The notes beneath the pieces were generated by a model that saw nothing but the letters and a program-made list of their open reading frames with translations, ran no database searches and was not told the origin of the DNA. The position numbers and the translations under genes were made by a program. Positions 912 to 42,805 of a stretch of 64,000 nucleotides of DNA are shown piece after piece; the stretch's first letter is position 1; the number at the start of each line of letters is the position of its first letter. Source of the stretch: Aliarcobacter sp. (GTDB taxonomy: Bacteria > Campylobacterota > Campylobacteria > Campylobacterales > Arcobacteraceae). The DNA lies in the NCBI GenBank assembly GCA_028681275.1, contig JAQUIV010000001.1:880-64879 (forward strand). The letters are read 5' to 3'.

Positions 912-2516
912 ATGATTCAAAATAACTCAATAGAAGCACTTAAAAATATTATTGATATTGTTGATATTATCGGTAGTGAACTTGAACTTAAGAAAAGTGG
1001 AGCAAATTTAAAAGCTTGCTGCCCTTTTCATGGTGAGAGTACTCCATCTTTTGTTCTTTCGCCAGCGAAACAAATATACCACTGCTTTGGTTGTGGTGTA
1101 GGTGGTGATGCAATTAAATTTATTCAAGAATACAATAAAATCAGCTTCTATGAGTCTATTGAAAAAATAGCAAATTATTATAACTTTACTTTAGAGTATG
1201 AAGACAATCAAAGTTCTCGTAATAATGAGTTTAAAAATACTTTAGAATCTATGAACCAATTTTATATGGCTAGTTTAGAAAAGGACCACATAGAGTACTT
1301 AAAAGATAGAGGTTTAACTTCTGAAATTATTGATGAGTGGGAAATAGGTTTTGCACCAAATAGTGAAAAACAGCTTCAATTTATTAGAAATAATCATCTA
1401 AATCTTGAAGATGTTGAGCTTGTAGGGATTACAGCAAAAGAAAAAGAAAGAACTTATGCAAGATTTATCAATAGAGTTATGTTTCCTATTAGAACTCATA
1501 GCAATAAGTTAGTTGGTTTTAGTGGAAGAATATTACAAGGAGATAGAGCTAAATATCTTAATTCACCATCTACTAAGTTGTTTGATAAATCAAGACTATT
1601 TTTTGGTTTTAATAAAGCAAAAGAGAGCATATATAAAAAAGGTATTGCAGTTGTTGTTGAGGGTGCTTTAGATGTAATTATGTTACATCAAGAGGGTATT
1701 AAAACGGCTATTGCAACACTTGGAACTGCTTTAACTGTACATCATATTCCTATTTTAGCTCAAGCTGCAAAAAAAGTACTTATTGCTTATGATGGAGATA
1801 ATGCAGGAAGAGTTGCTGCATATAAAGCTAGTTTACTTTTAAGTACTCATGGCATAGAAGCTGATGTTTGTTTTTTTGAACAAAGTGAAGACCCAGCGAG
1901 TATGTTAAAAGCTGGTAGAAAAAATGAATTAGTGGCTATTTTAAAAAATGCAACTAACTCTATAAAATTTATTTTATCAACTATTGTATCAAATTATGAG
2001 ATTAGTAATCCTCACCAAAAAAATAAAGCTTTGAGTGAAGCAACAGCTTTTTTAAAATCTTTACCATCTTTATTGGTAGCAAATGAGTATAAAGGTTTTT
2101 TAGCTTCATTATTAAAAATTAATTCAGAATTTATCACTTTAGGTCAAGTTCAAAAAGAGACAACTTCAAATATTTACTCTCAAGAAAATAGAGCAGAAAT
2201 AGCACTATTTAAAAGTATTGTTGAAAATCCATCTTGGCTAGATGAAATGATGGGGGTATTGGACTATGAAGCAATAGAGGATAATAAAATCTTTCAAGCT
2301 TTATTTGATGGAGATTTTAATAATGAGATTTTAATACCTTTAAAAATAAGGGATGATATTCCTATTTACTCTAAAGAAGATTATATTTTAGCTCTTAAAA
2401 TAAAACAAAAAGACTTTTTAAAAGAGAAATTAAAAAAACTAAGCCAAAGTGATGATATTAATATTTTTAGTGAAATATCAAGAATACAGAAAGAACTAAA
2501 AACTATAAAAATTTAA
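912..2516 (+). CDS. dnaG: Phage DNA primase (DnaG type)
   Basis: CPFH...HCFGC zinc finger, KYLNSP, TOPRIM VVEGALD and YDGDNAG. Confidence 0.95.
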   Translation: MIQNNSIEALKNIIDIVDIIGSELELKKSGANLKACCPFHGESTPSFVLSPAKQIYHCFGCGVGGDAIKFIQEYNKISFYESIEKIANYYNFTLEYEDNQSSRNNEFKNTLESMNQFYMASLEKDHIEYLKDRGLTSEIIDEWEIGFAPNSEKQLQFIRNNHLNLEDVELVGITAKEKERTYARFINRVMFPIRTHSNKLVGFSGRILQGDRAKYLNSPSTKLFDKSRLFFGFNKAKESIYKKGIAVVVEGALDVIMLHQEGIKTAIATLGTALTVHHIPILAQAAKKVLIAYDGDNAGRVAAYKASLLLSTHGIEADVCFFEQSEDPASMLKAGRKNELVAILKNATNSIKFILSTIVSNYEISNPHQKNKALSEATAFLKSLPSLLVANEYKGFLASLLKINSEFITLGQVQKETTSNIYSQENRAEIALFKSIVENPSWLDEMMGVLDYEAIEDNKIFQALFDGDFNNEILIPLKIRDDIPIYSKEDYILALKIKQKDFLKEKLKKLSQSDDINIFSEISRIQKELKTIKI

Positions 2517-2665
2517 CTGGTGCAAAGATATAAGCCAGTTTAGGATTTTCCGCCTATATTCATGTCGCTTAATTTATATCGAACCATAGCTTGCAAAACT
2601 TAAGAACCCGTTTGAGTTTGATTAGCATTAGTTGCTCGAAAGAGTTTATTTTTTTAGATGTGTCG

Positions 2666-2697
2666 GTCACTCTATTCTCAGCATAGAGTGACTTTTA
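2666..2697 (+). terminator. Intrinsic terminator-like hairpin after dnaG
   Basis: GTCACTCTAT-7nt-ATAGAGTGAC followed by TTTT. Confidence 0.6.
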
Positions 2698-2756
2698 TTA
2701 AACAAAATTTACAAAAAATGTAAGTTTTGTTTAGTGAAAAATATGGAGGTATAAAA

Positions 2757-2984
2757 ATGAAATGGTATGTGTTTAGAAATAAATCTTGTTTCCATAAAAT
2801 AAAAGCTAAGAATGAAAAAGAAGCCAAATTACTACTTATAGTTAGACAGAACAGGGCATTTATATATTTTAAGCTAGTGGGAGTATTTGAAACTAAATTT
2901 TGGGCCAAAAACTATATAGCATGGAATAAAGATAAGGGATATATAAATCAAGAGAATTTTTTACTTGAAAATGATGTTAAATAA
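2757..2984 (+). CDS. Phage hypothetical protein
   Basis: GGAGG RBS before ATG 2757. Confidence 0.6.
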   Translation: MKWYVFRNKSCFHKIKAKNEKEAKLLLIVRQNRAFIYFKLVGVFETKFWAKNYIAWNKDKGYINQENFLLENDVK

Positions 2985-3010
2985 ATTAAGAATATAGAGG
3001 AGTAGCAATA

Positions 3011-3157
3011 ATGAATAATTCATGTCTTTTTATAAGACAAAATTGGAATTTAGTAAAGAGGCAAAAAAGACTTTTAGGTAATAAAAAAAGACTTGCAAAA
3101 GAAGAGTTAAAGATGAAAGTTTTACAAGAAAAATATTTAGAAAAAGTAGGAGTTTAA
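3011..3157 (+). CDS. Small basic phage hypothetical protein (48 aa, not in ORF track)
   Basis: GAGGAG RBS, open frame MNNSCLFIRQNW...KVGV* abutting next ATG. Confidence 0.45.
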   Translation: MNNSCLFIRQNWNLVKRQKRLLGNKKRLAKEELKMKVLQEKYLEKVGV

Positions 3158-3158
3158 A

Positions 3159-6704: not shown

Positions 6705-7172
6705 TTGATTTATATTGCAATCGCAAAGGCTATACTTGAAGTTGCAGTAAATGATACATTTATAAATGACCCTGATATTATTTCTATTCATAAAAATAAA
6801 AAGAGAAAAGAGTATAAAAAGATTAAAGAAGGTCTTGAATTTATTAATAAAAAAATAGAAAATGTTTATTATCGTTTAGAAGAAAGAGACGGGAATAATG
6901 CTCAAGTAAAAGCGGTCAAACTAGCAGTTCCTTTTATCAAAACATTATCTAAATACAAAGATGTGAGTCTTGAATTATTATCTATAACTGTATTTGATTA
7001 TGGACTAAATCGTAAAAGAAAAACTAAATTAAATCCTGCCTTGAAACCATTTGCTGATTATCGTTTTTTATATGGAAAACTTGCAGCAAAAGTAGAAGAA
7101 GCTGGAGTTAGAGAAAATGAAAAAGAAGTTGAAATTATAAAAGAGTTAATGAAATCTATTAAATATAAATAA
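6705..7172 (+). CDS. Phage hypothetical protein; true start may be ATG 6594 with in-frame TAA at 6633
   Basis: 155-aa open frame lacking a good start; same-frame ATG with AGGAG upstream at 6594. Confidence 0.6.
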   Translation: MIYIAIAKAILEVAVNDTFINDPDIISIHKNKKRKEYKKIKEGLEFINKKIENVYYRLEERDGNNAQVKAVKLAVPFIKTLSKYKDVSLELLSITVFDYGLNRKRKTKLNPALKPFADYRFLYGKLAAKVEEAGVRENEKEVEIIKELMKSIKYK

Positions 7173-7193: not shown

Positions 7194-7223
7194 AAAAATA
7201 TCGCCAGCGAAATTAATCAAAAT

Positions 7224-7289: not shown

Positions 7290-8705
7290 ATGCAAGAAAA
7301 TAAATTCACATATAGCCCTCAACTAATAAGCACTATTGCAGAAACTAATAAACAAAATGCTGGTACACATATAGCTAAATTATTTGATGATTTAGGAAAT
7401 GTAGAAGAGTATAAATATAAAAAACAAGAAGAAGCTCAAGATAAAGCAATTAAAAAAGAGATTGAAAGTATCAATCTTGATGCAGTAAAAAATCAAGCTC
7501 AAGATAAACAAAACTTTATGAAATATGTAAAACTTGGAGTTCCACTTGAAGATAGCGGTTTAGAGTTCAAAACACCTGAATACTATTCTTTAGCAAATGA
7601 TTTTGGGAGAAAAGAGAAAAGTTTATCTGATGCAGAAGCAATAAAATATAATGCTTCTGAAGCAAATCGAATGTTTGCAAAAAATGGAGTATTTGATGAA
7701 AATGCATTTTATACTCATATGGATAATAAGCTAAAAAATAAAGAAATCAATGATCAAGTATATGCAGAAGTAATTGATGGAGTAAATAAAGCTAGAAAAG
7801 GTGGAATTTATAAAGAAAAGACTGATAATTCAATATATACAACCGACTATAAAAATCATTTACTTCAAAAAATGGACCCTAGTTTTAATCCTAATAGTGG
7901 TTATGGAAGTGGTGGCTCAACTAATGAAATTAAAAATTATAGAGCCTACAAAGAGTCAATGATTGCTGACGGGAAAACACCTATCCCTTATTATGCTTGG
8001 GCAGAAGATAAAGATTTAGATAAAAATATGGGGATGGGAGTTAAAGATATGAATTATGTAGATAGCCTTGTAGCCAAAGCCTTATCCTCAAATGACCCTA
8101 TTGAAAAAGCAAATGCAGGTAATAAATATAGAAATATTAATAAAGATGCTATTGAATCAGATAAATATTTTAGAGGGCTTGCTCCAACTGTATATCAACT
8201 TGAGGAGGCTCAAAAGCTAGTACAAAAAGGTGGTGCTGGTGCTGGTGATGAAATAAAAAATCAATTCTCAACATGGACTGGATTAGATTGGGATAATACA
8301 ACGCAAGAGGGAAGAACTGCATTTTTATCAGTATTACAACCTTTAGCTAAATCCTCAATGACTGGCTCAGTATCAGATAGAGATATGAAAACTTTGGAAT
8401 CATCATTTGCAACTTTATATCAAAGTGATAAAGCTGTTGCAAATGCCTTACAAAATAAAGCTAAACAAATGCTATTTACAGCAAAAACTTACGAAGAAGC
8501 TCATCCAACTTATGTAAAATTAAGAGGTTATGATAAAAGTATAGGTATGTTAGAAAAGATTGTAAATGGTCAAGTTTCTGACAAAAAAGAAGAAGATAAA
8601 AAAGTAGAAATTATTTATGATGCAAGAAATCCTAATAATCCAAAAGTTGAACAAAAACAAGAAATTCCAGTTCAAACTCCACAAATAAAATTCATTTATG
8701 AATAG
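7290..8705 (+). CDS. Putative virion ejection (DNA transfer) protein
   Basis: Helical 471-aa protein with GSVSDRDM motif, ahead of the large ejection protein and portal. Confidence 0.6.
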   Translation: MQENKFTYSPQLISTIAETNKQNAGTHIAKLFDDLGNVEEYKYKKQEEAQDKAIKKEIESINLDAVKNQAQDKQNFMKYVKLGVPLEDSGLEFKTPEYYSLANDFGRKEKSLSDAEAIKYNASEANRMFAKNGVFDENAFYTHMDNKLKNKEINDQVYAEVIDGVNKARKGGIYKEKTDNSIYTTDYKNHLLQKMDPSFNPNSGYGSGGSTNEIKNYRAYKESMIADGKTPIPYYAWAEDKDLDKNMGMGVKDMNYVDSLVAKALSSNDPIEKANAGNKYRNINKDAIESDKYFRGLAPTVYQLEEAQKLVQKGGAGAGDEIKNQFSTWTGLDWDNTTQEGRTAFLSVLQPLAKSSMTGSVSDRDMKTLESSFATLYQSDKAVANALQNKAKQMLFTAKTYEEAHPTYVKLRGYDKSIGMLEKIVNGQVSDKKEEDKKVEIIYDARNPNNPKVEQKQEIPVQTPQIKFIYE

Positions 8706-8713: not shown

Positions 8714-11700
8714 ATGAAAGTAGAAATACCAAGCGGTGCAAAAAAAATGACTTTACCTAATGGGCAAAATATTGACATACCAGATGGTGCAAAAAGCATG
8801 GATGTTCCTGATGAATATTTTGCATCAACAACAATAAAACCTGAAGTGCCGAAAGAACCACAAACTCCTAGTTATAATGATATTGGTAATGTTCATCCAG
8901 CTCCAATAGTTGAAAATACACCAATAAAAAAAGAATCTCTTTTTGATAAAGCTAAATCTTTTGTTAAAGGTGGAGTTGATGAAGCTAAAAGATTTTTACA
9001 TATGGGTGCAGATGGATTAGAAACGGGTGTTAATGTTATGAATCCAATATCTCCTATAACAGGAGAGCTTGATATTGTAAAAGATACTCCAATGAAAAAA
9101 GAGTTTCTTGAAAAACAAGATGAAAATAAAATTGATGATAAATTAATTGGAGATATAGAATCACTTGCAAGAGTGGATAGACAACTTTTTAGAGATGCTA
9201 CACCTGAAGACAAAAAAAAGTATATGGAAAATGTAGGTAATGTATTAGCTCGTGGTGGTTATGCACTTGGAAAAGATACTGATGGTAATTTTGTTGCAGT
9301 TGGTGAAGATGGAAAACCAAAAGCTATTACTAATGGTTTTTTTGAGGGTATTATTGATGGACTTGTAGCCGATAAAGGTGAATTTGCTGGGGCAATTAGT
9401 GGAGCTTATGCAGGAACAAAACTAGCTAAAACTGTTCCTACTGCTATTGGAAAAGCAGCAACAGTTTTGGGTTCAAGTGCAATGGGGGCAATGACTGGAA
9501 CTGCTTTAGATACTGCAATTAGTTCTTATAAAACAAATCAAAAACTATCAGTAGAAGATTTTTTTAATGAATTAGGTAAAAGTGCTGTTTTAGATGTGGC
9601 AGGTAATGCTATTGGTTATGGAGTTATTAAAGCTGGAAGTAAAGTAGTAGAGGGAACAAAAGAATTAAAAGACTATGTTTTAAGTGGAAATATAAATGGT
9701 GCTAGAGATATACTTAAAAAGGATTTAGGGATAGATGAAAACTATATAGATGATGCACTAATACAAGCAAAAAATCAATATAAGGAAGTTTCAGACTATA
9801 CAAACAAAGGGATAACAGATAAAGCTAAACAACAAGAAGAACTTTTAGCAGCAGTACAGAATGATAAAAAATTTGGTAATCAAATAATTCGTGATGTTGT
9901 TTTAGATGATGTTGATGCAGCAAGAAATGTTTCAAGAACAATTGATGCAAGAGCTAAAAATGTTTTAAGTTTATTTGATGATGTAAAAGTGAGTGGAACT
10001 GATATAAAAAATAGTGTTAAAGAGTATGAAGATAATGTACATCAAAAGTACTCAGACATGAGAAATACATTTAAAGATGCTTTTTCAGAAACTGGTTATA
10101 GATTTGATTTAAAAACTTTAAAATTTGATGAAACCTTAGAAAAGCTAAGTGAAAAAGTTACAGACCCAATTACAAAAGAAAAATTTAAAAATCTAAAAAC
10201 TACTTTAGATAACATCGTTTACGATAAAGACTTAGGGATAGGTGTTGTAAAAGATTTTGATGATTTACTAGATATTCGACAGATGATGAATAAATTTTAT
10301 AGAAAGAATCAGGGAGCTTTTGAATTAAAACCTGATAAAGATGCATTCTTTAATCTTGTAAAAAATATTGATACAGAGATTGAATCTTCTGTAAAAAATT
10401 ATCTACCTGAAGAAATTCATAAACCATTATTAGATGCTTTTGATAATGCAAGAATGGAATATAAACAAATGTATGATATTGCAGATACTAAGCTTTATAA
10501 ATCACTTATGGCAGATGGAATAAGTGCAGAGGATAGAATGGAAAATCTGATTAAACATACAGCAGATGATGAAAATGAATTTTCTACTCTTTTAAATAAA
10601 TTACCAGGAGAACAACAAGAAAAAATTGAAAATAGTATAGTTAATACTTTTTTAGAAAAAAACTTACTAGGTCAATCAAATGAGATACAAGCTATTGATT
10701 ATGCAAAAGTAAGTAATAGTTTGGGGAAAATGAAAGATTTTTTCACTACAGAAAGTGGTAAAGAATCTATAGATATGATTGATAATATGTCTAAAAAATT
10801 TGGTAATGATTTAGAACTTATTAAAGTTGCAAATAAAGCGAATATTGATACTAATGTGGGAATCGCAACAACAATAAAAGGTCGATTAGAGTATAAAATT
10901 GTAAAAGATAGTTATGATAGATTAATGAGATTAATTCCTTTTTCAAGTACTGCTAAAAGACTGGCTTTACAAGAACATATTAAACAAGCTTTACAAAAAA
11001 GTCGTACACCAATGGAAATGGTAAAAAGAGTTGCAAGAAGTTCTGAGATACCAGCTGATGAATTAGCAAGCTTGAAGAGTGATATTTTAGATTTTAATAA
11101 AACTCAAAGAGCCACTAGACAATCAGACCTTTTGAAAATCGAAAAAGAGAGAGAAGCCAGATTTTCTCAAGCAGAAGAAGAATTAAAAAAATCTCAAAAA
11201 CTTGCAGATGAAAATAGACTAATTCAAAGAGCAGATGAACTAACAAAAAATAGACCTACTCTTGAAGAACTAAAAGCAATGGATAATTTAGAGGGTGGAG
11301 GCAATGGCTACTTCTTCGCAAATATGTATCATCTTGATAATATAACTCCTCATCAAGCTGCGGAATATGATAGAGCATTAAGTCAATATGGCGATAAAAT
11401 AGAACTTAAAATAAATGAAAATAAATATCCAATAAATGTTGATAATAGAGCAAAAATTGAACAATTAAAAGATTATCTAATGTACACCAAACAAAGTGGG
11501 AAAGATGATACTGGACTTAGTGGATTAGTAAATCCAAATAAATATAAAGCTTTAATAGACGATTTAAGTAAAGGAAAGTTTAGAAATAGTGAGTACCAAA
11601 AAACTTACTATGACTTATTAAAAGCTTATGATGAATTTGAACCTAAAATCAAAGATATGTATGATGATAGTAGCTTTGCACCTTTTGTAAATGGTGAAAC

Positions 11701-13600
11701 TTTAGGTGGTGCTTTTATAGGTGGTGGAGATACAGCTTTTAATGAAAGAGATTGGAATAATGATGGGAAGAGTGATGAAGAAGATGTGGTGATTGGAGCA
11801 ATCGGGGGAGTAATTGGATTTAAAGCTTTATCTAAAATGTTTCCTGAATGGTTTAAAAGTGAAAGTGGAATAAATGCTAATAAGTTTAATAAAGAGAAAA
11901 AAAATATTTTAAAAGTAGCAATGGGGGAAAAGCCATCTACTGTTATTAAAACTTATGATGTAGAAAGCTTAGATAATTTTGTAGAATTTGAACGAGGTGG
12001 ATTTAATAAACATACTCAAAAAGGTGTTGGATTTGAGAAAATTGCAATAAGACATATGCAAGATGGAAGCAATGGATTTATAACACTTGATGAATTAACA
12101 AGAATTGGAGATATTATTAGAAATGGAGAATTTGAACTTAAGAAAAATGGATTAAGAGAATATACTTATTGGGATAATGATATTCGATATAAAGCCATTG
12201 TAGGTGAAAATGATAAAAATGAAAGGGTTGTAAGTTTTTATAGTAATAGACAGGGGAAGGGACATAATGCCCGAACATTATTTGACAACCCGTCTAATGG
12301 AGTAATTATAACATATAAACCTCAAAAAAGTTTCAAAGAATGGGTGGAAAATTTAGAAAAAAATGATGATGGTGTAGTAATTGGTTCATTCATGGGTAAA
12401 GCTCCAGTTATTGAAAAAAGCTTTTTAGATAAAGATGGATTTTATTCAGTTTTGGAAAAAACTATTAATGAAAAAGCTGGAGGAAAAATTGATTCTATTT
12501 CGCTAGCGAAAATGCTTGAAAACAATGGAGTTAAAGAAGATGAGATTGAATGGAGTGGACTTAAAGAGCTAATGAGCAATAATGAAAAGCTAACTAAAGA
12601 TGAGATTGAAAATACTATTAGTGAAAATAGACTTGTAATTGAAAAAGTTGAGAAAACAACTGATGCTAAATATGAAAAGTATAAGCTAGAGGGTGGTGAT
12701 AATTATAGAGAGTATCTATTTAAACAAGATAATAGAGAGAGAGGGGAAAACTTTAAATCACACCACTGGGATGAAAAGAATATATTAGTTTTTACAAGAG
12801 TAGATGATAGAAAAATAGATAATAAACCAACTTTATTTATTGAAGAGATTCAAAGCGACTGGCATCAAGATGGTAGGAAAAAAGGCTATAGAGGCAGTGC
12901 AGATATTATATACGATGTTAGAAAATTTTTTGGAATTGAAAAAAAACAATGGGATACATTTTCAAAAGATACTCAAGATGCATATATTCAAGATATGAAA
13001 GACGATAAAGTCTATAAAAAGATACTCGTACCTAATGCACCATTCAAAAAGAATTGGTACGAGCTAGGCGTTAAAAGACTCATTCAAGAAGCTGTAGCAA
13101 ATGATTATGAAAAATTATCATGGACTACAGGAACACAGCAAACGCAAAGATATAGTTTAGAAACAACAGCAGACCAAATTATCTATAATAAAAATTCTGG
13201 AGCAATACAAGTAAAAAATAAAGATAAAGATGTATTTTTTAAAACTATTGCAAATGATGAAGAACTAGAAAATATTATAGGTAAAGAAATAGCAAATAAA
13301 CTTATAAACGCCCCTACTCAAAATGAAAATGTATTTATGCTCAAAGGTGATGAGCTTAAATTTGGTGGTGATGGTATGAAAAGCTTTTATGACTCTATCT
13401 TACCAAATACAGTAAAAAAACTGTTTAAGAAATATCAAGTAAAACCAAAGATTGAAGAACTTGACGATAGTGAAGAAATGGTTTGGAGTATAGATATTCC
13501 ACAAAAGATGAAAGAAGATATTAAGAAGTTAGGTCAACCACTATATGCAGTTGGTGGGTCAATCGTTGGCTATGAAGCTATAAAAGAGGATAACAAATGA
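8714..13600 (+). CDS. Large virion ejection / polyvalent protein (BECR-like nuclease plus EEIQSDWHQ domain)
   Basis: 1628 aa; Gly/Ala-rich hydrophobic segments; GFEKIAIRH...VVSFY; LFIEEIQSDWHQ...GMKSFYD. Confidence 0.7.
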   Translation: MKVEIPSGAKKMTLPNGQNIDIPDGAKSMDVPDEYFASTTIKPEVPKEPQTPSYNDIGNVHPAPIVENTPIKKESLFDKAKSFVKGGVDEAKRFLHMGADGLETGVNVMNPISPITGELDIVKDTPMKKEFLEKQDENKIDDKLIGDIESLARVDRQLFRDATPEDKKKYMENVGNVLARGGYALGKDTDGNFVAVGEDGKPKAITNGFFEGIIDGLVADKGEFAGAISGAYAGTKLAKTVPTAIGKAATVLGSSAMGAMTGTALDTAISSYKTNQKLSVEDFFNELGKSAVLDVAGNAIGYGVIKAGSKVVEGTKELKDYVLSGNINGARDILKKDLGIDENYIDDALIQAKNQYKEVSDYTNKGITDKAKQQEELLAAVQNDKKFGNQIIRDVVLDDVDAARNVSRTIDARAKNVLSLFDDVKVSGTDIKNSVKEYEDNVHQKYSDMRNTFKDAFSETGYRFDLKTLKFDETLEKLSEKVTDPITKEKFKNLKTTLDNIVYDKDLGIGVVKDFDDLLDIRQMMNKFYRKNQGAFELKPDKDAFFNLVKNIDTEIESSVKNYLPEEIHKPLLDAFDNARMEYKQMYDIADTKLYKSLMADGISAEDRMENLIKHTADDENEFSTLLNKLPGEQQEKIENSIVNTFLEKNLLGQSNEIQAIDYAKVSNSLGKMKDFFTTESGKESIDMIDNMSKKFGNDLELIKVANKANIDTNVGIATTIKGRLEYKIVKDSYDRLMRLIPFSSTAKRLALQEHIKQALQKSRTPMEMVKRVARSSEIPADELASLKSDILDFNKTQRATRQSDLLKIEKEREARFSQAEEELKKSQKLADENRLIQRADELTKNRPTLEELKAMDNLEGGGNGYFFANMYHLDNITPHQAAEYDRALSQYGDKIELKINENKYPINVDNRAKIEQLKDYLMYTKQSGKDDTGLSGLVNPNKYKALIDDLSKGKFRNSEYQKTYYDLLKAYDEFEPKIKDMYDDSSFAPFVNGETLGGAFIGGGDTAFNERDWNNDGKSDEEDVVIGAIGGVIGFKALSKMFPEWFKSESGINANKFNKEKKNILKVAMGEKPSTVIKTYDVESLDNFVEFERGGFNKHTQKGVGFEKIAIRHMQDGSNGFITLDELTRIGDIIRNGEFELKKNGLREYTYWDNDIRYKAIVGENDKNERVVSFYSNRQGKGHNARTLFDNPSNGVIITYKPQKSFKEWVENLEKNDDGVVIGSFMGKAPVIEKSFLDKDGFYSVLEKTINEKAGGKIDSISLAKMLENNGVKEDEIEWSGLKELMSNNEKLTKDEIENTISENRLVIEKVEKTTDAKYEKYKLEGGDNYREYLFKQDNRERGENFKSHHWDEKNILVFTRVDDRKIDNKPTLFIEEIQSDWHQDGRKKGYRGSADIIYDVRKFFGIEKKQWDTFSKDTQDAYIQDMKDDKVYKKILVPNAPFKKNWYELGVKRLIQEAVANDYEKLSWTTGTQQTQRYSLETTADQIIYNKNSGAIQVKNKDKDVFFKTIANDEELENIIGKEIANKLINAPTQNENVFMLKGDELKFGGDGMKSFYDSILPNTVKKLFKKYQVKPKIEELDDSEEMVWSIDIPQKMKEDIKKLGQPLYAVGGSIVGYEAIKEDNK

Positions 13601-15430: not shown

Positions 15431-15496
15431 ATTGAAGAATAATTTTAGAATAATGTATAATTATTTCGCTGGCGGAATACAAAAAAAAGGAAAAAT

Positions 15497-15772
15497 ATGA
15501 AAAAAATCGCTTTAATTTTAATTGCAGCTACAAGCATAACTTTTGCTTATGATAGCAATTTTGGTTCACAATACAATATGAAAGATTATAGTAAATCTTC
15601 AAATTCTTATTCCAATCCAAGTCGTGGATATGAAAAGCCAGGAGATAGCAACTATAATAATATGAAAACAGATGAATATATCTATGGTAAAAACAACTCA
15701 TATCAGGGAAGTAGAGCTGGAGATAGTGATTTTTCTGAAAGACAGATGAAAGCTTTGATGAGAGATAAGTAG
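15497..15772 (+). CDS. Secreted small protein (moron)
   Basis: Signal peptide MKKIALILIAATSITFA; TATAAT at 15456; AAGGA RBS. Confidence 0.75.
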   Translation: MKKIALILIAATSITFAYDSNFGSQYNMKDYSKSSNSYSNPSRGYEKPGDSNYNNMKTDEYIYGKNNSYQGSRAGDSDFSERQMKALMRDK

Positions 15773-17410: not shown

Positions 17411-17449
17411 ATTTTATCTTCTAATAACTTAATATTGCGTTAATCCGTA
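17411..17449 (-). promoter_or_regulatory. Operator TACGGATTAACGCAA plus promoter
   Basis: Operator 17435-17449, TTAAGTT, 9 bp, TAAAAT. Confidence 0.8.
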
Positions 17450-17671: not shown

Positions 17672-18268
17672 TTAATATACTTCTCTTGCAAAGGGAAATA
17701 TTTTATCTATATTTTTTTCAATACATAAACCATCAAAACAACCTGGTCTATTCTCTTTTTTTCTTTTGAAGTTAGTCATAAAATTATACTTACTATCACT
17801 TAAATCTATAACATCCTTTGCAACTAGCTCTCTAAAGTCTGCTAATAGCTTAAAAAGCTCTTCTAATTGTTTTTGAGAGCTAGAACTTGCAATTGGTCTA
17901 AAATGAGGATAACTCAAGATATTGCACTTTTTTATAAAATCAATAGTTGCAGCAGTTGGATTATTTTCAATATAGCTTTTTATATTTTTTAAACTGCCTA
18001 ACTCTAAAGGTAAATTTAGCAGCTCTTTTAATTCTATATTTTTATTTTCTTCATATGCGGTTCTTATAAGTTCACTATCACTTCTAAAGCCAGCTTTTAA
18101 AACATAAGGTGTATCTTCACCAAATGCTCTTTCTATTACATAACCATATCTAAAAGCTAATCTAAAATAGCTATCAGATTTTTCCAATATACTATTTTCT
18201 ATTAGCTCACTTATTTTCGTGACTACTCTATCCGCCTTTTCTAAATCTTGAGCTGATACAGTAGTCAC
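17672..18268 (-). CDS. Hypothetical protein downstream of parB
   Basis: 198-aa ORF coupled to parB. Confidence 0.7.
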   Translation of the reverse strand: MTTVSAQDLEKADRVVTKISELIENSILEKSDSYFRLAFRYGYVIERAFGEDTPYVLKAGFRSDSELIRTAYEENKNIELKELLNLPLELGSLKNIKSYIENNPTAATIDFIKKCNILSYPHFRPIASSSSQKQLEELFKLLADFRELVAKDVIDLSDSKYNFMTNFKRKKENRPGCFDGLCIEKNIDKIFPFAREVY

Positions 18269-18273: not shown

Positions 18274-19941
18274 CTACAAAACTTTTTCATTTCTCTCTTC
18301 AAAAGATTTTTGAAACTTTTCTCGCAAGCTATGAATATCTTTAAATAACTCTTCTTTTTCTTCTTTAGTTAAAAGTAAATTTGAAAATTGTAAAAGCAAA
18401 TTATTATCAATGATTGTAAAATTTGAAGTTGAAAAAACATCGTTTTCTATTGATACTGTATCTACTCCATCAAAGTTTGCATTATCAGCTGTATCTTCAA
18501 ATCTTTGTTCTGCTTCAAGCTGCATGAAAATATTTTTTTGTTTTTCTTCTGTAAAAAATATCACATCATAATAATTATTATTTAATAGAAATCTTCTATT
18601 TGTTGAAATTATAAAACCATTACTAACAAGACCTTCCATTTTTGCTTTACTTGATAAACTATCTTCATCCTTTCCTTTTATTCTTTTTTCTAGTATATCA
18701 GTGATTTTAATTAAATGCTCATTATTTGCTAAAATAATACCCTCTTTAATCATTTCTTCATACTTGATAATTTCTTCTATAAAATCTTCTATTTCTATAG
18801 TTTCACAATCTTCAAGAGAAAGAAGAGATTTTTGTTTCTCTTCTTTAGCTTTATTATAAGATTCTCTCCATTCTTTGATTTTTTCTATATCATTTTCATT
18901 TTTAAATGGAATAACTTTACCATTAATATAAACAGCTGAGCTATCACTAGAAACATAACTATTATCAAATATTTCTTTTTTTACTTCTTCTGCAAAAGCT
19001 TCATCATTTAGTTTTTCTCTTTCTGCTTCTTCTTTGTCTTTAGCCTCTTTATTTTTATTATAAGTTTCTTTCCACTTTTTGATTTTTTCAAAGTCATTTT
19101 TATGACCAAATATAAGAGTTTCTTTATCATTTTTAACTTCAGCATGTTTTTCTGGGTATTCAAACAAATAAGCATAAGCGACTCCAGATAAAATATCTTC
19201 TTTTATAACTTCTGCATAATGAATAGAATCTAATTTTTCTTTTTCATTTTCAAAATTATCCAAAGACCTTTTTACATTAGTTCGTATATCTTCTCTTGTA
19301 ATTTCGCCAGCGGAATATTTATTATAATAACTTAATTGTCTTTTAGGATTTGGCTCTCTTGAAATCTCCTGTAATATATCTAAACCAATATCACTATGAT
19401 TTGCTTTTAAGTGATCAATAATTTCATCACATAAATTAAATACTGCAAAAGCTTTACTAACATAAGGAGCTTTTTTCCCAATATTTTTTGCTAAATCACT
19501 TTTTTTAGTATATTTTCCTTGTTCCCAAATAGCTTTAATAGATAAAGCAATTTCAAAAGGTGTTAAATCTTCCCTTTGAATATTTTCAATTAGCTGCACT
19601 TCGCTTATAACTTCTTTATGTTCAACTGTTACAATAGCTTTAATTGTTTTTAAATCAGCTTTTAAATGTGCTCTATATCTTCTTTCTCCAGCGACAAGTT
19701 TATATTTTCCTGTTCCATCTTCTTCAACAATAATTGGTTCTAATAAACCATGCTCTTTTATTGAGTTTGCAAGTTCTTCTATTTTCTCTTCATTAAAAAG
19801 TTTTCTTGGCTGATTTGGGTCAGGATAAACTAAAAATAAAGCTAACTCTAAAATTCCACCTAAAGTGGGTTGCTCTTGGTCTGTTGCTGTTGTTACTTCC
19901 CCACCTAATAAATCATCTAAATCAATATTGTTCTTACTCAT
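18274..19941 (-). CDS. parB: ParB-family CTPase/DNA-binding protein with long C-terminal extension
   Basis: PNQPRKLF, GLLEPI, AGERRYRA, ENIQREDL, HTH (KSDLAKNIGKKAPYVSK). Confidence 0.9.
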   Translation of the reverse strand: MSKNNIDLDDLLGGEVTTATDQEQPTLGGILELALFLVYPDPNQPRKLFNEEKIEELANSIKEHGLLEPIIVEEDGTGKYKLVAGERRYRAHLKADLKTIKAIVTVEHKEVISEVQLIENIQREDLTPFEIALSIKAIWEQGKYTKKSDLAKNIGKKAPYVSKAFAVFNLCDEIIDHLKANHSDIGLDILQEISREPNPKRQLSYYNKYSAGEITREDIRTNVKRSLDNFENEKEKLDSIHYAEVIKEDILSGVAYAYLFEYPEKHAEVKNDKETLIFGHKNDFEKIKKWKETYNKNKEAKDKEEAEREKLNDEAFAEEVKKEIFDNSYVSSDSSAVYINGKVIPFKNENDIEKIKEWRESYNKAKEEKQKSLLSLEDCETIEIEDFIEEIIKYEEMIKEGIILANNEHLIKITDILEKRIKGKDEDSLSSKAKMEGLVSNGFIISTNRRFLLNNNYYDVIFFTEEKQKNIFMQLEAEQRFEDTADNANFDGVDTVSIENDVFSTSNFTIIDNNLLLQFSNLLLTKEEKEELFKDIHSLREKFQKSFEERNEKVL

Positions 19942-19942: not shown

Positions 19943-20629
19943 TTAAGCTCCTTGAATAGTTAAAATTTCTTGACATAAAGCCTCAATCTCAAGTTTTGAT
20001 TTAGGCTCAACTTTTGCTTTTATTTCTGTTACACCTTTTGCAAATTTTGATTGTTTATCATATTCAATAGAAGTATGAATAACTGTATTCATAAAATTTG
20101 GAAAATCTTTTTTAATCTCATTTTTTATAGGTTCGAGATTTGTTTTTCGTGGATGAACTTGATTTAATAAAACCTTGAATTTATCCCTACTAATTCCCTC
20201 TTCATTTAATATCTTTTTAAATGATAACATTCCTAAATCATCCACCATTGCACCACCTTTAAAAGGCAAGATAATATGTTTTGCTAACTTTAGAGCCAAT
20301 CTGTTAAGCGGAGTATCAAAACCACCAATATCAATTAAAGTTAATCCTTGAAACTCCTCATTTATAAAATCTCTAAGCTGCTGTTCTGATTTGATAGAAG
20401 TTACATTTAAAGCTGCTAATTCTTTCTTTTGTCTTATGATATTTGTAAGATATACAGTTTGTTGGAAGTCAATATCCGCAACTCTTACATTTATCCCCGC
20501 ATTGTGTAAAGCTATTGCTGCATTTAAAGTTATTAGAGATTTTCCAATCCCTCCTTTTGTCCATCCAATTATTATTGGTTCTGCTGTTTTACCGTTTATT
20601 AAGTCTGTTGTTTTTTTAGTTAATTTCAT
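19943..20629 (-). CDS. parA: ParA-family ATPase
   Basis: Deviant Walker A KGGIGKS, DIDFQ, LIDIGG; AAAGGA RBS before ATG 20629. Confidence 0.9.
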   Translation of the reverse strand: MKLTKKTTDLINGKTAEPIIIGWTKGGIGKSLITLNAAIALHNAGINVRVADIDFQQTVYLTNIIRQKKELAALNVTSIKSEQQLRDFINEEFQGLTLIDIGGFDTPLNRLALKLAKHIILPFKGGAMVDDLGMLSFKKILNEEGISRDKFKVLLNQVHPRKTNLEPIKNEIKKDFPNFMNTVIHTSIEYDKQSKFAKGVTEIKAKVEPKSKLEIEALCQEILTIQGA

Positions 20630-23417: not shown

Positions 23418-23531
23418 GTGTGATAACCCGTAAAGAAAAAATATAATTTTAATATTTTACGGATTAACGCAATATTAAGTTAACAAGTAATAGAATACCG
23501 TAATTATTATATTATATACGGAGTAACACAA
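23418..23531. promoter_or_regulatory. Immunity switch region with three operators
   Basis: Operators at 23418-23432(-), 23458-23472(+), 23517-23531(+); TTAAGTT-9bp-TAGAAT. Confidence 0.8.
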
Positions 23532-27581: not shown

Positions 27582-28172
27582 ATGGCAGTAAATCAAGATT
27601 CAAGATTAAAAGTTCAAGTTGTTTATGAAAGCAATAACTGGAGTCCAAAAGAAGTAAAAGAAAATCGTTTTGCAGACGATGAAGAGATAAAAATAAAAAC
27701 AATTGAAAGTTGGGTAACAAAGTTCGGCTGGAAAAAAAATCGTTTCGCCAGCGAAATGGAAGCAATAGATAATGTTATTGAGGGAACATTACCAATTGAT
27801 GAAGTTAAAAAAATCGTTAAAGATAAAATGAAAAGTGATGTAGTAGATTGTGAAGTAGTGGGTGATGAAAACGATGATGAAGATGATAAATATTCAGGGA
27901 TGATGGCGATAGAGTTATCTTATAAGGTTTTAAATGTTCATGCTCTTCAGTTTGAAATGGCAAATAACCTAGAAAAAACAAAAAAATTAGCAGATAAATC
28001 AAATAGTATTGGAGTGAAAAAAACTTATCATGATATGTTAATAAATACTTACCAAACTATTCATGGGAAAAACATAAATATTACTCCTAAAAATCCTGAT
28101 GATAACTCTTTGTCAACTGAAGATATTAAAAAGAAAAGTGATGAAGAGCTAGATAGATTGATAAAAGGATAA
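27582..28172 (+). CDS. Probable terminase small subunit
   Basis: N-terminal HTH ending TIESWVTKFGWKK; C-terminal SDEELDRLI. Confidence 0.6.
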   Translation: MAVNQDSRLKVQVVYESNNWSPKEVKENRFADDEEIKIKTIESWVTKFGWKKNRFASEMEAIDNVIEGTLPIDEVKKIVKDKMKSDVVDCEVVGDENDDEDDKYSGMMAIELSYKVLNVHALQFEMANNLEKTKKLADKSNSIGVKKTYHDMLINTYQTIHGKNINITPKNPDDNSLSTEDIKKKSDEELDRLIKG

Positions 28173-30686: not shown

Positions 30687-31043
30687 ATGATATTTAATGA
30701 ATATAACAAAAATGGACAAGCTAGAAAAGTTATAAAATATGGTGCAGCTAGTGTGATTGATATTTGTTCTTTACCTGTTGGTACTGATGTAGCTATTAAT
30801 ATTACTGTAGATGAAGTTTTTAATGCTGGTTCTACAATCAAAATCGGAACAAATTTAGAAGATGATAAATTTGTAAATAGTTTTAGTGTTGCAGCTATTG
30901 GAGGTAAAAATTCTGAAATTAGATTTACTACTACAGAAGCAGAAAAAGAAATTAAAGCAGTAATCAATCAAAATACTACAGCTGGAGCTTGTACAGTAAA
31001 AGTTGATTATGTTTTACCAACAAATTATGAGGTTAATTACTAA
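30687..31043 (+). CDS. Head decoration/cement protein
   Basis: Beta-rich 118 aa after capsid (VDEVFNAGSTIKIG). Confidence 0.6.
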   Translation: MIFNEYNKNGQARKVIKYGAASVIDICSLPVGTDVAINITVDEVFNAGSTIKIGTNLEDDKFVNSFSVAAIGGKNSEIRFTTTEAEKEIKAVINQNTTAGACTVKVDYVLPTNYEVNY

Positions 31044-31044
31044 A

Positions 31045-31698
31045 ATGAAAAGAGTACTTATCCCAGGATTGAGTGTAGTTGTTTATTCTGGTGAAGCAGA
31101 AAGAAAATTTTGGGAAGCGAAAGATAGGGTTACTCCTATCTTAGAAAAAGGTGATATGGTAATAATCCCAAATAATATAGCTGCTTTAATTTGCCGAAAA
31201 AATGATTTTAATATTACTAATGATTTTTATATTTTCGCTAGCGAAAAAGAAGACAAGCAAACTCCTAGTCCTTTAGCTTTAACAGAAGATGAAAAAAAAC
31301 TTATAGTTGAAAAATATTTAAATGATAATAATTTAGTTGCTATTGAAAAAGGAGCTGATGCTAATGTTAGTAATTTAGAATCAAAACTAACTCCACCACC
31401 CCCAGCAGATGATGAAAAATTAGCATCAATATTAAAAGGTTTAGAAACTGGTGAATTAAAAGAAGAAGAGTTAAGTGAGTATGACAAAGAGCTTCTTACA
31501 AAAGAAAGACAAAGAGTCTTGGATGAACAAGAACCTACTCTTGATTTAGAAAATATTACACCACTTGAAGAGTTTGAGACAAAAGACTCTTTAGAAATTT
31601 ATGGGATAACTTTTGGAATCAATTTAAATAAAACTAAAAAACTTGAGAATATGTATGCTGAGTTATTAGCTCATATTGAAACTTTAAAAACTAAATAA
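31045..31698 (+). CDS. Phage head-region protein with C-terminal HeH-like motif
   Basis: TKDSLEIYGITFGINLNKTKKLENM. Confidence 0.6.
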   Translation: MKRVLIPGLSVVVYSGEAERKFWEAKDRVTPILEKGDMVIIPNNIAALICRKNDFNITNDFYIFASEKEDKQTPSPLALTEDEKKLIVEKYLNDNNLVAIEKGADANVSNLESKLTPPPPADDEKLASILKGLETGELKEEELSEYDKELLTKERQRVLDEQEPTLDLENITPLEEFETKDSLEIYGITFGINLNKTKKLENMYAELLAHIETLKTK

Positions 31699-32336: not shown

Positions 32337-33203
32337 ATGGTAGATATTAAAGAAATAACAAAAAATATCAATACTCTATCTGAGGATATAAATAAAAATG
32401 TATTTGTTGAACAAGCTAGAAAATCTTTTAAAGAGGGAATAGATACATATGATATGTCAGATGAAGAGAGAGCAAAATTTCTAGCTCAATATGAAGCAAA
32501 CTTATCTATTGGAGTAGTTAATAGTATTATTTCTAAAGCTTTTGATTTAGTTGAATTAAATTTAAGAGTTGAATTACTAAATAAACAAATAAGTACAGAA
32601 AATATTAACCAAGATATAAAAAGTCAACAAGAGATAGCAGAAAGAATAAAAAATGGAAATATTCTATATGTTTATACATATTATCAAGATACTGATGATG
32701 AAGTAATAGCTGGAACAAAAAGAGCTGGAGATATTAAAACTAAAACACTTAATGCAAATGGTATTGGTAAATCTATTTATGAACTTGAAATGGACAAACT
32801 TATTCAAGAACTTACCGAGAATAAAGAAAAATGGGATAAACAAAAAGTTATTGTTGATAATCAAGTTGAGATGAGCAATATTGATAAACAATTTAAATTT
32901 ACTTTAGTATCAAAAGATGTAGCTATAAAAGAAAAACAATTATCTCAAATGGCAGCAGATATTTCTTTTAATGAATCTAAAAAAATAATTATGGAGTTAA
33001 CACGAAAAGATAATATTAGGATGAAAAGTGCTGAAATGTTTGCTGAGTTCTTGAAATATTTGAGTGCTGCAAATGTTATTCCAGCTAATCAAGATTTTGA
33101 AAATATTAGAAGTTTAATTATTGCAATCCAACAAGGGCTTACAAGTGAAAATGCAACAGCATTGATTGCTTCTCCATCTGGAAATCAATATGTTAAACCA
33201 TAG
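32337..33203 (+). CDS. Virion structural protein (coiled coil)
   Basis: Late operon context. Confidence 0.6.
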   Translation: MVDIKEITKNINTLSEDINKNVFVEQARKSFKEGIDTYDMSDEERAKFLAQYEANLSIGVVNSIISKAFDLVELNLRVELLNKQISTENINQDIKSQQEIAERIKNGNILYVYTYYQDTDDEVIAGTKRAGDIKTKTLNANGIGKSIYELEMDKLIQELTENKEKWDKQKVIVDNQVEMSNIDKQFKFTLVSKDVAIKEKQLSQMAADISFNESKKIIMELTRKDNIRMKSAEMFAEFLKYLSAANVIPANQDFENIRSLIIAIQQGLTSENATALIASPSGNQYVKP

Positions 33204-33564
33204 TAAAAGCTCTCCTTTTGATTTACAAAATAAAAGAGCTATAGAAAATATTAGAATAGATTTATCAAATAAAACAGATACAGAAGTTTTAAATAGTTTA
33301 CTTCAAGGTATCTCGGAAGATGTATTTACCTTAAGTCAATTAGTTGCAAATAAAGTAAATAATGAAACATTTAATACTGCTATTCAGAGTATCTCGGAAG
33401 ATGTATTTACCTTGAGTCAATTAGTTGCGAATAAGCAAGATAAATTTACTGGAGTAACTACAGCTTTAACAATTATTACTGGAGTAAATTTCGCCAGCGA
33501 AACTGTTATAACAAAAACTTTAACTATTTCAAATGGAATTATTGAAAGTATTAGTGATGTTTAG
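33190..33564 (+). CDS. Tail needle-like coiled-coil protein with internal repeat
   Basis: ISEDVFTLSQLVANK twice; C-terminal LTISNGII. Confidence 0.5.
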   Translation: MLNHSKSSPFDLQNKRAIENIRIDLSNKTDTEVLNSLLQGISEDVFTLSQLVANKVNNETFNTAIQSISEDVFTLSQLVANKQDKFTGVTTALTIITGVNFASETVITKTLTISNGIIESISDV

Positions 33565-35737: not shown

Positions 35738-35797
35738 TACGGATTAACGCAATATTAAGTTTATGTTATATATAATCCATATTACGGATTAACGCAA
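35738..35797 (+). promoter_or_regulatory. Double operator plus promoter
   Basis: TACGGATTAACGCAA at 35738 and 35783 flanking TTAAGTT-9bp-TATAAT. Confidence 0.85.
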
Positions 35798-40320: not shown

Positions 40321-40332
40321 AAGGAAATAAAA

Positions 40333-40803: not shown

Positions 40804-41153
40804 TAATTACATATCCAACTTTACAGCCGACAAAAACTAATAAATTTGTTTTAACAGAAGAGTATAGATACAAATGTATAAAAATACCTATTGGATATGA
40901 AACAAATGGAGCAGATATTCCTAGACCTTTTGGATTAATTATTCAACCATTTAGTCCTAAATATTTACCAGCTATTTTAGTGCATGATTTTTTGATTGAA
41001 AAAGCAACTAATAGTTTTGATATTTGTATTGCAAATGAATACTTTGAAGAGATGTTATTAATAATTGAAGATAGCTATAAAACTAAAATTATGATTATAG
41101 CTGTAAAGCTTTATTGGAAGTTTAAAATTAAATTTAAAAAAGGAAAAAAATGA
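40800..41153 (+). CDS. DUF1353-like protein
   Basis: IPIGYETNGADIPR...AILVHDFL. Confidence 0.75.
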   Translation: MIITYPTLQPTKTNKFVLTEEYRYKCIKIPIGYETNGADIPRPFGLIIQPFSPKYLPAILVHDFLIEKATNSFDICIANEYFEEMLLIIEDSYKTKIMIIAVKLYWKFKIKFKKGKK

Positions 41154-41632
41154 TTGAAACAACAACCGCAATAAAAATAGTTTGGAATACTTTTGTAATC
41201 CTTTTTAGTGGAATATTAGCTTATTTAGAAATTTCTCAAGAGCCTTTCACTTTATTTGCAATTCTTTTAGTTATCGATTACATAACTGGATTATGGAAAG
41301 CAAAAACTTTAGAGCATAGTATCACATCAAATAAAATGAAGTATGGACTTGTTTCTAAACTTTCTTTAATCATAGTTCCAATTGTTGTTGCAATGGGTGC
41401 AAAAGCTTTAGGAGCTGATAGTCATTATGTTTTAAACTCTGGAATGTATATCTTAATACTTAGTGAAGTTTATTCAATCATTGGAAATATCTACTCAACT
41501 AGAACTAAACAAGAGTTTCCAGAATATGATGCCCTAGCAGCTATTGGAAAATATATAAGAAATTTTTTAATGAGCAAAAATATACCAAGTTGCCCTATTT
41601 CTGTAAAAGAGGAGAATGAAAAAGATGCCTAG
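41150..41632 (+). CDS. Holin (phage holin family 4)
   Basis: TM helices, IDYITG, SNKMKYGLVSK, SEVYSIIGN. Confidence 0.85.
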   Translation: MIETTTAIKIVWNTFVILFSGILAYLEISQEPFTLFAILLVIDYITGLWKAKTLEHSITSNKMKYGLVSKLSLIIVPIVVAMGAKALGADSHYVLNSGMYILILSEVYSIIGNIYSTRTKQEFPEYDALAAIGKYIRNFLMSKNIPSCPISVKEENEKDA

Positions 41633-41957
41633 ATTATATATAGGAATTGCCCTGGTATTAATTGCTCTTGGGTGTGTAGCTTATGTGAATAATTTAAAGT
41701 CAGATTTAGCAGATGAAAAGAAGCTAAGAATAGATACAAAAACTGAACTTGATGAAGCAAATAAAAACAATAAGCTAATCATTGAAGCCTATGAGCAAAC
41801 TTTAGCAATTGAAAAAGAGATAGCAGCTCAAAAAGCTGTTACTACTGAACAAAAAGAAGTTGTAGTTACAAAGTACAAAACACTAACTAAAACAATTGAA
41901 AAAAGAGGAGAGATAAAACAAGATGAAAAAAGCAATTTTACTATCGTTACTTTTTAG
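41616..41957 (+). CDS. Inner-membrane spanin (Rz-like)
   Basis: N-terminal TM plus coiled coil in lysis cassette. Confidence 0.7.
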   Translation: MKKMPRLYIGIALVLIALGCVAYVNNLKSDLADEKKLRIDTKTELDEANKNNKLIIEAYEQTLAIEKEIAAQKAVTTEQKEVVVTKYKTLTKTIEKRGEIKQDEKSNFTIVTF

Positions 41958-42183
41958 TTGCGTTTTTATTGGATGCTCTCAAAAAGAGCAAATAGTTTTT
42001 AAAGAAAAAATCGTTTGTGTTGAACAACAAAAAGTTGAGAGAGTTCAACCTGTACAAATGAGAGTTTATAAAGATGATGTTGATGTAGCAGTTGCCTATA
42101 AAACTGCTATTGATTCAAATATAACTTTCTATGAAAATCAAGTGGATAGAAATAATACTTTTTGTAAAGAGGTAAGTAAATGA
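41923..42183 (+). CDS. Outer-membrane spanin lipoprotein (Rz1-like)
   Basis: Lipobox FIGC; overlaps previous gene. Confidence 0.7.
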   Translation: MKKAILLSLLFSCVFIGCSQKEQIVFKEKIVCVEQQKVERVQPVQMRVYKDDVDVAVAYKTAIDSNITFYENQVDRNNTFCKEVSK

Positions 42184-42752
42184 AATCAGTAGCTCAAGCA
42201 ATAGAAATAGGTGTAAAAACTTACTTAGATGAATATGAAGATGCAATTAATGTATTATGGAAACACAATATTCAAATAACCCCAGAGATTAATGTTGCAT
42301 CTTTTTTAATAGCTCAAGCAGTTCAAGAAAGTAGATTTGATGCAAAAGCTGTAAGTCCAGCTGGTGCAGTTGGAATTGCTCAATTTATGACTCCTACTGC
42401 AAAACAAATTGGTGATGAACTAAAAACAAAACTAGCATTATTTAAAGATGGATTTGATAGAGAAAATCCCATCCAAAGTATTTGGGCTCAAGTATATTAT
42501 ATGAATAAATTATTTAAAACTTGGGATTTAGGAAGAGTTGAAGTTGAAAGATTTAAACTCGCCCTTGCTTCATATAATGCAGGAACTGGAAATATTCTAC
42601 AAGCCCAAAAGGTAAGTGGTAATAAAAAGTTTTGGAATGAAATAAAACTTTCTCTATCTTCTGTTACAGGAGAGAATAGTAAAGAAACAATTGGTTATGT
42701 TGATAATATTATGAAATATGCTGTTGATGTAGATAAATTTAGAGTTTTATAA
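42180..42752 (+). CDS. Endolysin, SLT lytic transglycosylase
   Basis: QESRF..AVSPAGAVGIAQFM, ALASYNAG, ETIGYV. Confidence 0.9.
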   Translation: MKSVAQAIEIGVKTYLDEYEDAINVLWKHNIQITPEINVASFLIAQAVQESRFDAKAVSPAGAVGIAQFMTPTAKQIGDELKTKLALFKDGFDRENPIQSIWAQVYYMNKLFKTWDLGRVEVERFKLALASYNAGTGNILQAQKVSGNKKFWNEIKLSLSSVTGENSKETIGYVDNIMKYAVDVDKFRVL

Positions 42753-42805
42753 TTCATCTAAATTTCGCTAGCGAAAACGGAATAACATAAAAATACTTCT
42801 TTATT

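Follow-up and report, generated by a model that had tools for sequence, protein, structure and literature searches.

KorB of the IncP-1 plasmid RK2 is a ParB-family cytidine triphosphate (CTP) clamp that silences promoters from dispersed OB sites, with the core TTTAGCGGCTAAA and the 13-bp operator TTTAGCSGCTAAA (PMC11790492). The phage-plasmid N15 has a SopAB system with four inverted-repeat (IR) centromere sites, at which SopB can silence nearby promoters (PMC7205306, citing Ravin and Lane 1999). Cluster A actinobacteriophages, RedRock and Miko among them, have parABS in place of the integration cassette, with parS sites on either side of the par genes (PMC7157519). Here, we report on a temperate tailed phage integrated at a tRNA-Leu gene of an Aliarcobacter sp., which encodes its own ParA and ParB and carries ten dispersed copies of the 14-bp palindrome TTTCGCNNGCGAAA. 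The DNA analyzed, hereafter the window, is a 64,000-nucleotide stretch of contig JAQUIV010000001.1 (assembly GCA_028681275.1). The analysis suggests, with a probability that we put at about 0.8, that the palindromes are parS-type loading sites of the prophage's own CTP-clamp ParB, paired with a small ParA.

Among the described systems, KorB/OB is the nearest analogue in layout, N15 the nearest phage precedent and chromosomal ParB/Noc the nearest by sequence. The phage system has in common with KorB/OB a ParB-family CTP clamp with a ParA-type ATPase (on the phage side as judged from sequence motifs), a short palindrome with TTT...AAA ends and about a dozen copies scattered over the replicon, with no single centromere. 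It differs in that OB has 13 bp whereas the phage site has 14 bp with a free 2-bp centre, in that the phage ParB scores higher against chromosomal ParB/Noc (E 3e-38) than against KorB (6e-25), in that most phage sites lie within genes, and in its carrier, an integrating tailed phage instead of a plasmid. N15 and the phage studied here are both temperate, with a ParB-type protein and several separate palindromes in place of a tandem array; N15, however, is a linear plasmid prophage without an integrase, whereas the element studied here is integrated with both attachment (att) sites, its ParA is small and Soj-like and its ParB Spo0J-like instead of F-type SopA/SopB, and it has ten evenly spaced sites instead of four. 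The cluster A phages are likewise temperate and tailed and encode ParA, ParB and parS, but in the present phage an integrase and parAB coexist and the sites are genome-wide. Full-text searches of the literature, for ParB of Arcobacter prophages and for parABS in temperate phages that integrate, returned no description of the system.

A motif scan of the window retrieved six exact and four one-mismatch copies of TTTCGCNNGCGAAA, i.e. all ten palindromes that a first-pass annotation had reported, each at the position given there; dinucleotide-preserving shuffles lead to an expectation of 0.00 exact and 0.07 one-mismatch copies. The sites have the consensus TTTCGC-YR-GCGAAA, and the unit is taken to be these 14 bp because the flanks of the ten sites have no further sequence in common. 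The central 2 bp are free, being CA/TG or TA in the window and CG, AT, GC or others in relatives. The absence of copies from 19.6 kb of host DNA, reported by the same annotation, extends to the whole assembly (1.84 Mb, 157 contigs, 27% G+C), in which 10 of the 11 sites with at most one mismatch lie in the prophage. Similarly, the assembly copies of the G+C-rich cores CGCCAGCG (6/6) and CGCTAGCG (3/3) are all found at prophage sites, and on this genome-wide comparison of prophage and host the motif is specific to the prophage. Matches with two mismatches at 19683, 31109 and 33766 were treated as probably due to chance, the motif not being conserved there in relatives; the last had been entered as a weaker site, and in the relative it drifts further from the motif, as do the other two. 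On the excised circle, the gaps between sites measure 2.3-9.3 kb, with an average spacing of ~4.5 kb, and they are more even than chance (coefficient of variation 0.43 versus 0.88 for random placement, P 0.006; smallest gap, P 0.002 versus random placement). The sites are dispersed and not gathered into one centromere, three of them being intergenic and seven lying within genes.

Conservation was assessed in six relatives of the prophage. One is a 35-kb contig of the IMG/VR database, with a ParB 76% identical to that of the window and collinear with window positions 4.8-38 kb at a DNA identity of 80-92%; it has eight sites, all eight at orthologous places and four with a mismatch identical to that in the window. 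The five others were found in public assemblies via the C-terminal half of ParB. Over 26 orthologous site pairs, only 3 substitutions affect the 312 specified positions (1.0%), as against 11.1% change in the flanking +/-200 nt (binomial P ~1e-12, for six relatives that are kin and not independent), and two of the three return to the consensus. The central pair of orthologous sites can flip from CA to TG, and site 6 is also present at the homologous codons in a contig of genome G143 (L031:952). The seven coding sites occupy three reading registers and both strands, encoding LSPAKQ, ISLAKM, YSAGEI, NLAGEI, RFASEM, IFASEK and NFASET, and they employ codons that the phage otherwise uses very rarely (TCG 1%, TCC 1%, GCG 4%, GCC 4% and GGC 6% of their synonymous sets), which are kept in the relatives. 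The mismatched sites in parB and the cI-like gene are constrained by the protein sequence: a perfect site would need Phe in place of Ser or Leu. Purifying selection on the sites is strong and acts at the DNA level, which bears out what the first-pass annotation had read from their changing frames and strands and from their GC-rich codons.

The phage ParB begins with a ParB_N domain (Pfam, 2.4e-26) with the CTP-binding boxes GERRYRA and ENIQRED, seen as invariant AGERRYRAH and ENIQREDL in 13 homologues, followed by an HTH_ParB domain (Pfam, 1.3e-5) whose profile fits solved ParB/Noc DNA-binding domains. The ParA gene (19943-20677) matches the CbiA, MipZ and ParA families. When the ParB profile was searched against the PDB, it matched H. 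pylori Spo0J bound to parS at 3.4e-38, Noc at ~1e-29 and KorB at 5.9e-25; the structures compared were 8QA8, 8QA9 and 1R71 for KorB, and 4UMK, 6T1F, 7OL9 and 6Y93 for chromosomal ParB/Spo0J-parS and Noc-NBS (Noc-binding site). The phage ParB is closer to chromosomal ParB/Noc than to KorB, which corrects the KorB side of the framing proposed earlier. Chromosomal ParB and Noc provide the best matches in both sequence and fold, with conserved CTP-binding boxes, and Noc in addition has many dispersed sites. One parS of B. subtilis lies within spo0J, just as one phage site lies within parB. In contrast, the phage half-sites are 2 bp further apart than those of parS and NBS, and the phage ParB has an extra C-terminal half of ~330 amino acids without a fold match.

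In an AlphaFold model (mean predicted local distance difference test, pLDDT, of 70.9), this C-terminal region, residues 230-555, is predicted to consist of three strand-plus-long-helix modules and a terminal helix pair. Each repeat (the region spans window positions 18274-19251) is modeled as a small beta-meander followed by a long helix, and the repeats have a common sequence motif, N-x-N-D, then K-I-K-E-W-K, then Y. Clamps of the ParB/Spo0J type carry a dimerization domain at the C terminus. Residues 230-555 had no match in Pfam or the PDB, and a fold search with the full model matched the N-terminal half only; all PDB matches at E<=0.001 were ParB, Noc or KorB chains of ~170-220 residues without the C-terminal domain, aligned over at most 220 columns. 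The C-terminal half is kept in 12 homologues and is absent from the other ParBs of the clade. Genome and metagenome contig collections yielded only distant ParB/Noc relatives, mostly from Firmicutes or gut-derived, with 34-53% identity in the N-terminal domain, which were set aside, and a protein search of a phage collection gave N-terminal matches only, at ~30-40% identity, with no close relative.

A survey of the family covered 184 genomes. Of these, 26 contain the exact motif, in several as copies close together on one contig, whereas a reversed control pattern gave single matches only, in 10 genomes. A ParB search separates the chromosomal ParB (~95-125 bits) from extra copies and identified 15 other loci with a ParB of the phage clade, a ParA gene adjoining in all but the two loci of genome G056. 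All 15 carry at least one palindrome of the layout TTTC-xx-NN-xx-GAAA, and most an exact one, for which our own base-frequency estimate gives an expectation of ~0.02 per 20 kb. Motif and ParB thus occur together in related elements, a check that the first-pass annotation had proposed. The inner bases (positions 5-6) are GC in the window and six loci, CC in six loci, AC or AC/CC hybrids in three and GT in one. Wherever the genome is complete or nearly so, every exact copy of the local variant adjoins parAB, the copies being spread over 20-43 kb: in G012 the five genome copies of TTTCCCNNGGGAAA all lie within 37 kb, beside parB; in G038 the four copies of the local variant lie within 21 kb; in G153 all four are beside parAB; and in G077 and G138 three to five surround parB. 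The phage of G084 is of the same type as that of the window (terminase 65%, portal 47%) with a ParB only 38% identical, and its sites, spread over 43 kb, comprise five exact copies of TTTCGTYRACGAAA and three near ones, with no exact copy elsewhere in 3 Mb. When all open reading frames of the window were compared with these 15 mosaic elements using tblastn, only ParB (15/15) and ParA (13/15) proved to be common to them; unrelated tyrosine integrases were detected in nine.

Site variants also follow the protein. Plotted on the ParB tree, the variants cluster, though with several switches, namely 7 changes against a minimum of 4 and a shuffled mean of 9.6. The recognition helix was rejected as the sole specificity determinant because by itself it fails to separate the motif variants. 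A residue triplet at window ParB positions 184-186, ~20 positions past this helix, tracks the site variant: it is D-x-G/S in the six main GC-variant proteins (the Asp being one alignment position off in the divergent L042 and L043), x-x-P in all six CC-variant proteins, which belong to three branches, and N/T-x-G/S in the company of the AC and GT variants. We propose these three positions as candidate specificity residues, a prediction drawn from the alignment. The half-sites TTTCAC and TTTCCC of variant elements equal those of parS and NBS. Canonical 16-bp parS-like sites exist elsewhere in the host genome, and since the phage half-sites are 2 bp further apart than those of the host parS, cross-reaction should not be expected. 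Loci L042 (G066:C62:1-8687) and L043 (G115:C348) are small contigs that encode a ParB of 289-290 amino acids and a ParA. In them TTTCGCATGCGAAA is present four or five times, with parB flanked by two of the copies, and the palindrome of the G066 contig matches the core TTCGCATGCGAA.

Taken together, the sites exist, are phage-specific, and occur and vary together with this ParB clade; being in addition conserved above their flanks, they support the proposal of the first-pass annotation that they are binding sites of the phage ParB. Physical binding is strongly inferred; its CTP dependence, the time of expression and the biological role, which would be partition, silencing or both, are more conjectural, and whatever would follow from binding is hypothetical. 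In the mechanism that we propose, ParB dimers would load at each palindrome, close round the DNA with CTP and slide outward; with ten entry points ~4.5 kb apart, the clamps would therefore cover essentially the whole phage circle. ParA would position and partition the circular genome while it is non-integrated, i.e. after infection, after excision or in hosts where integration is impossible. Where a site adjoins a promoter (15464, 42763 and perhaps 7199), local silencing of the kind exerted by KorB and N15 SopB could be a side effect or a further function. Given that the element integrates and that a repressor-type operator apparently precedes parAB, the main period of ParB action may be the one following infection or induction, and less the stable lysogen. 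A more far-reaching variant, which we regard as quite improbable, is that the evenly spaced sites let ParB-CTP clamps coat the whole phage chromosome shortly after infection or after induction, forming a layer of chromatin specific to the phage. Such a coat would go beyond a plasmid-style centromere: it would mark and organize phage DNA, and it could set the position of genomes under replication, bring transcription and packaging into step, or protect the phage DNA against host nucleases. Many prophages would have such a coat, with the site specificity switched. Early expression would be in keeping with the location of parAB, which shares an operon with the anti-restriction gene ardC downstream of a repressor-type operator.

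With the same phage ParB as binder, the main job could instead be a KorB-like global control of transcription, in which clamps slide to promoters and silence them, thereby timing the expression of moron, virion or integration genes. KorB acts in this way from its dispersed OB sites (PMC11790492), and an element that integrates has less need of partition. Three of the ten sites are intergenic in a mostly coding genome; two of them (15464 and 42763) lie 3-10 bp downstream of -10-like hexamers in 10-of-12 sigma-70-like matches, and one adjoins a conserved C-run element that precedes a virion operon. The earlier statement that three sites sit at promoters stands to this extent, but the frequency of such matches does not clearly exceed that in shuffled versions of the AT-rich window DNA. 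Moreover, the other seven sites lie deep within genes, the even spacing suits genome coverage better than promoter targeting, ParA is kept in 13 of the 15 related elements and the protein is nearer to ParB/Noc than to KorB; no KorA-like partner turned up, although no search aimed at KorA was made. We regard transcription control as the main job as rather unlikely. Recombination or module exchange, or some other structural role of the DNA, would be a scarcely credible function for these sites. Homology between the window and the IMG/VR relative does resume exactly at the site at 15464, beside different moron genes, and a 2-bp centre resembles the crossover sites of serine recombinases. However, only one of the eight sites common to both phages lies at a mosaic junction, 6-bp half-sites fall well below the length of recombinase sites, hairpins with such short stems would not be stable, the annotated genes showed no serine recombinase, and no recombinase co-occurs across the 15 elements, save the unrelated tyrosine integrases.

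Several observations nevertheless weigh against loading sites of the prophage's own ParB. The element is integrated with an intact integrase gene, such that a partition role is not obviously needed; ParB may be off in the lysogen, its operon seemingly standing behind a repressor-type operator; and monophyly of the site variant on the ParB tree is imperfect, with the 7 changes mentioned above where 4 would be the minimum. In addition, exact clusters of the same palindrome are found in integrase- or TrbL-bearing elements of G095, G159, G046 and G038: three copies in 84 bp beside a TrbL/VirB6 gene in G159 (L050:9680-9763 = G159:C18:195679-195762), three or four copies within 5 kb in a similar integrase/TrbL element of G095 (C19, L049:7012-11882), and palindrome pairs in such elements of G046 and G038. 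No second ParB_N gene was found near the clusters of these four genomes, and the genomes of G095, G159 and G046 hold only the chromosomal ParB_N gene. Some other binder is therefore presumably able to use such a site, be it a different protein or a ParB relative so distant as to escape detection. Were the palindromes of the window likewise operators or binding sites of a different protein, such as a phage regulator or a host factor, the linkage to parAB would be incidental, and these clusters in conjugative/integrative elements would be readily accommodated; the gene for a 198-200-amino-acid protein that directly follows parB in all close relatives could then be considered for the binder. Yet ParB and ParA alone are common to the 15 palindrome-bearing elements, 14 of which lack the 198-amino-acid protein, a word other than the palindrome (TACGGATTAACGCAA) fits the repressor-type operator, the motif variant changes with ParB and is tracked by the residue triplet, and a host factor would leave the element-specific variants unexplained. 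We thus consider a different binder very unlikely, and loading of the phage ParB at its own sites remains our preferred interpretation.

The prophage itself is delimited by a 55-bp exact direct repeat of the 3' part of tRNA-Leu, with both ends on one contig (Table 1), which places the ten sites within a 45.1-kb integrated prophage. As the element is truly integrated, any plasmid-like phase would be transient or conditional. Its genes were identified by Pfam and PHROGs. The leftward block encodes Rha, a 198-amino-acid protein without a family match, ParB, ParA, ArdC and a cI-like S24 repressor, and the rightward block a replication initiator, a DnaB helicase, the large terminase, the major capsid protein and a tail fibre; a tyrosine integrase, a primase and a portal protein are encoded as well. 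The protein of 198-200 amino acids (gene 17672-18268, minus strand) has no family match, its gene lies directly after parB in every close relative and also follows parB in the G143 contig, at 51% identity, and the par operon may include it as a third member. One relative has an additional exact site (L221:9273-9286) that precedes parA by 27 bp; three inserted genes separate ardC from parA there.

Another dispersed word is TACGGATTAACGCAA, which has 8 copies with at most two mismatches and 10 with at most three (0.9 expected). Its copies are found between cI and cro and upstream of several operons, among them ardC-parAB and xis-int, and it is probably the operator set of the repressor, distinct from the ParB palindrome. 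Because the word upstream of the ardC-parA-parB operon recurs in the cI/cro intergenic region, this operon may be repressor-controlled. Site 10 is situated ~30 bp before operator-like repeats that precede a gene for 86 amino acids (42874-43134), itself just before int and read as xis in the first-pass annotation.

Table 1. Window coordinates of the palindromic sites, par genes, attachment sites and operator-like words of the prophage.
Feature	Position	Strand	Description
Site 1	1057-1070		Exact, centre CA; within DNA primase gene 912-2516
Site 2	7199-7212		One mismatch (TATCGC...); intergenic, 6705-7172 / 7290-8705; same mismatch kept in IMG/VR relative
Site 3	12498-12511		Exact, centre TA; within 8714-13600 (1628-aa virion-associated protein); identical in 4 relatives
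Site 4	15464-15477		One mismatch (...GCGGAA); intergenic, 3 bp after -10-like TATAAT, before small gene 15497-15772
Site 5	19302-19315		One mismatch; within parB (ParB residues 209-214, YSAGEI); invariant in 6 relatives
Site 6	22795-22808		One mismatch (...GCTAAA); within cI-like S24 repressor gene; invariant in 5 relatives
Site 7	27743-27756		Exact; within 27582-28172, just after large terminase gene; identical in 5 relatives
Site 8	31233-31246		Exact, centre TA; within gene 31003-31698
Site 9	33489-33502		Exact; within gene 33166-33564
Site 10	42763-42776		Exact, centre TA; intergenic, 10 bp after -10-like hexamer
parB	18274-19941	-	555 aa; ParB_N + HTH_ParB + C-terminal half of ~330 aa
parA	19943-20677	-	Small Soj/MinD-type ATPase, directly upstream of parB
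Operator-like TACGGAATAACGCAA	21961-21975	-	Ahead of ardC-parA-parB operon; word recurs in cI/cro intergenic region
TACGGATTAACGCAA copies	17435-17449, 21961-21975, 23458-23472, 23517-23531, 35738-35752, 35783-35797, 42806-42820, 42859-42873		Probable repressor operators
Tyrosine integrase gene	43121-44242		Adjoins tRNA-Leu
attL	752-806 bp left of window start (contig C100:73-127)		55-bp partner of attR
attR	44381-44435		55-bp exact direct repeat of tRNA-Leu 3' part

Further observations concern the mosaic structure and the carriage of the prophage. Homology with the IMG/VR relative (L052/L053) breaks off at 16067 and begins again precisely at position 15477, in the ParB site; the relative has other genes in place of the two small ones in between, and the segment at 35.7-37.4 kb of the window is found elsewhere in that relative, beside the Rha region. 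These differences fit inverted repeats that the first-pass annotation recorded at 16068 and 37395. A comparison with a sequencing run, which used assembled contigs only, showed the phage part in a landfill metagenome (run X1), the best match and probably the source of the DNA, as one clean contig set at a depth of ~60, while the host flank (window 44379-48000) appeared as many strain variants with a summed depth in the thousands. Some contigs of this run depart from the window just left of tRNA-Leu (44379), a divergence that is compatible with prophage-free strains and is not evidence of excision; the prophage seems to be carried by a minority of the related strains in the landfill sample.

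Three features of this system are new: a class of 14-bp sites with a free 2-bp centre and natural specificity variants, an even genome-wide spread of sites in a tailed phage that integrates, and a ParB whose C-terminal half of ~330 amino acids has no fold match. The clade keeps half-sites of the parS and NBS type set 2 bp further apart, a protein-site pair that was not found in the searchable literature. With natural site variants and a residue triplet that tracks them, these prophages therefore form a ready-made system for studying the evolution of ParB specificity; they also supply ParB/parS pairs, orthogonal to one another, with which DNA loci can be tagged. That an integrating phage keeps ParAB and has its sites spread evenly over the genome suggests that ParB proteins of phages do more than plasmid-style partition.

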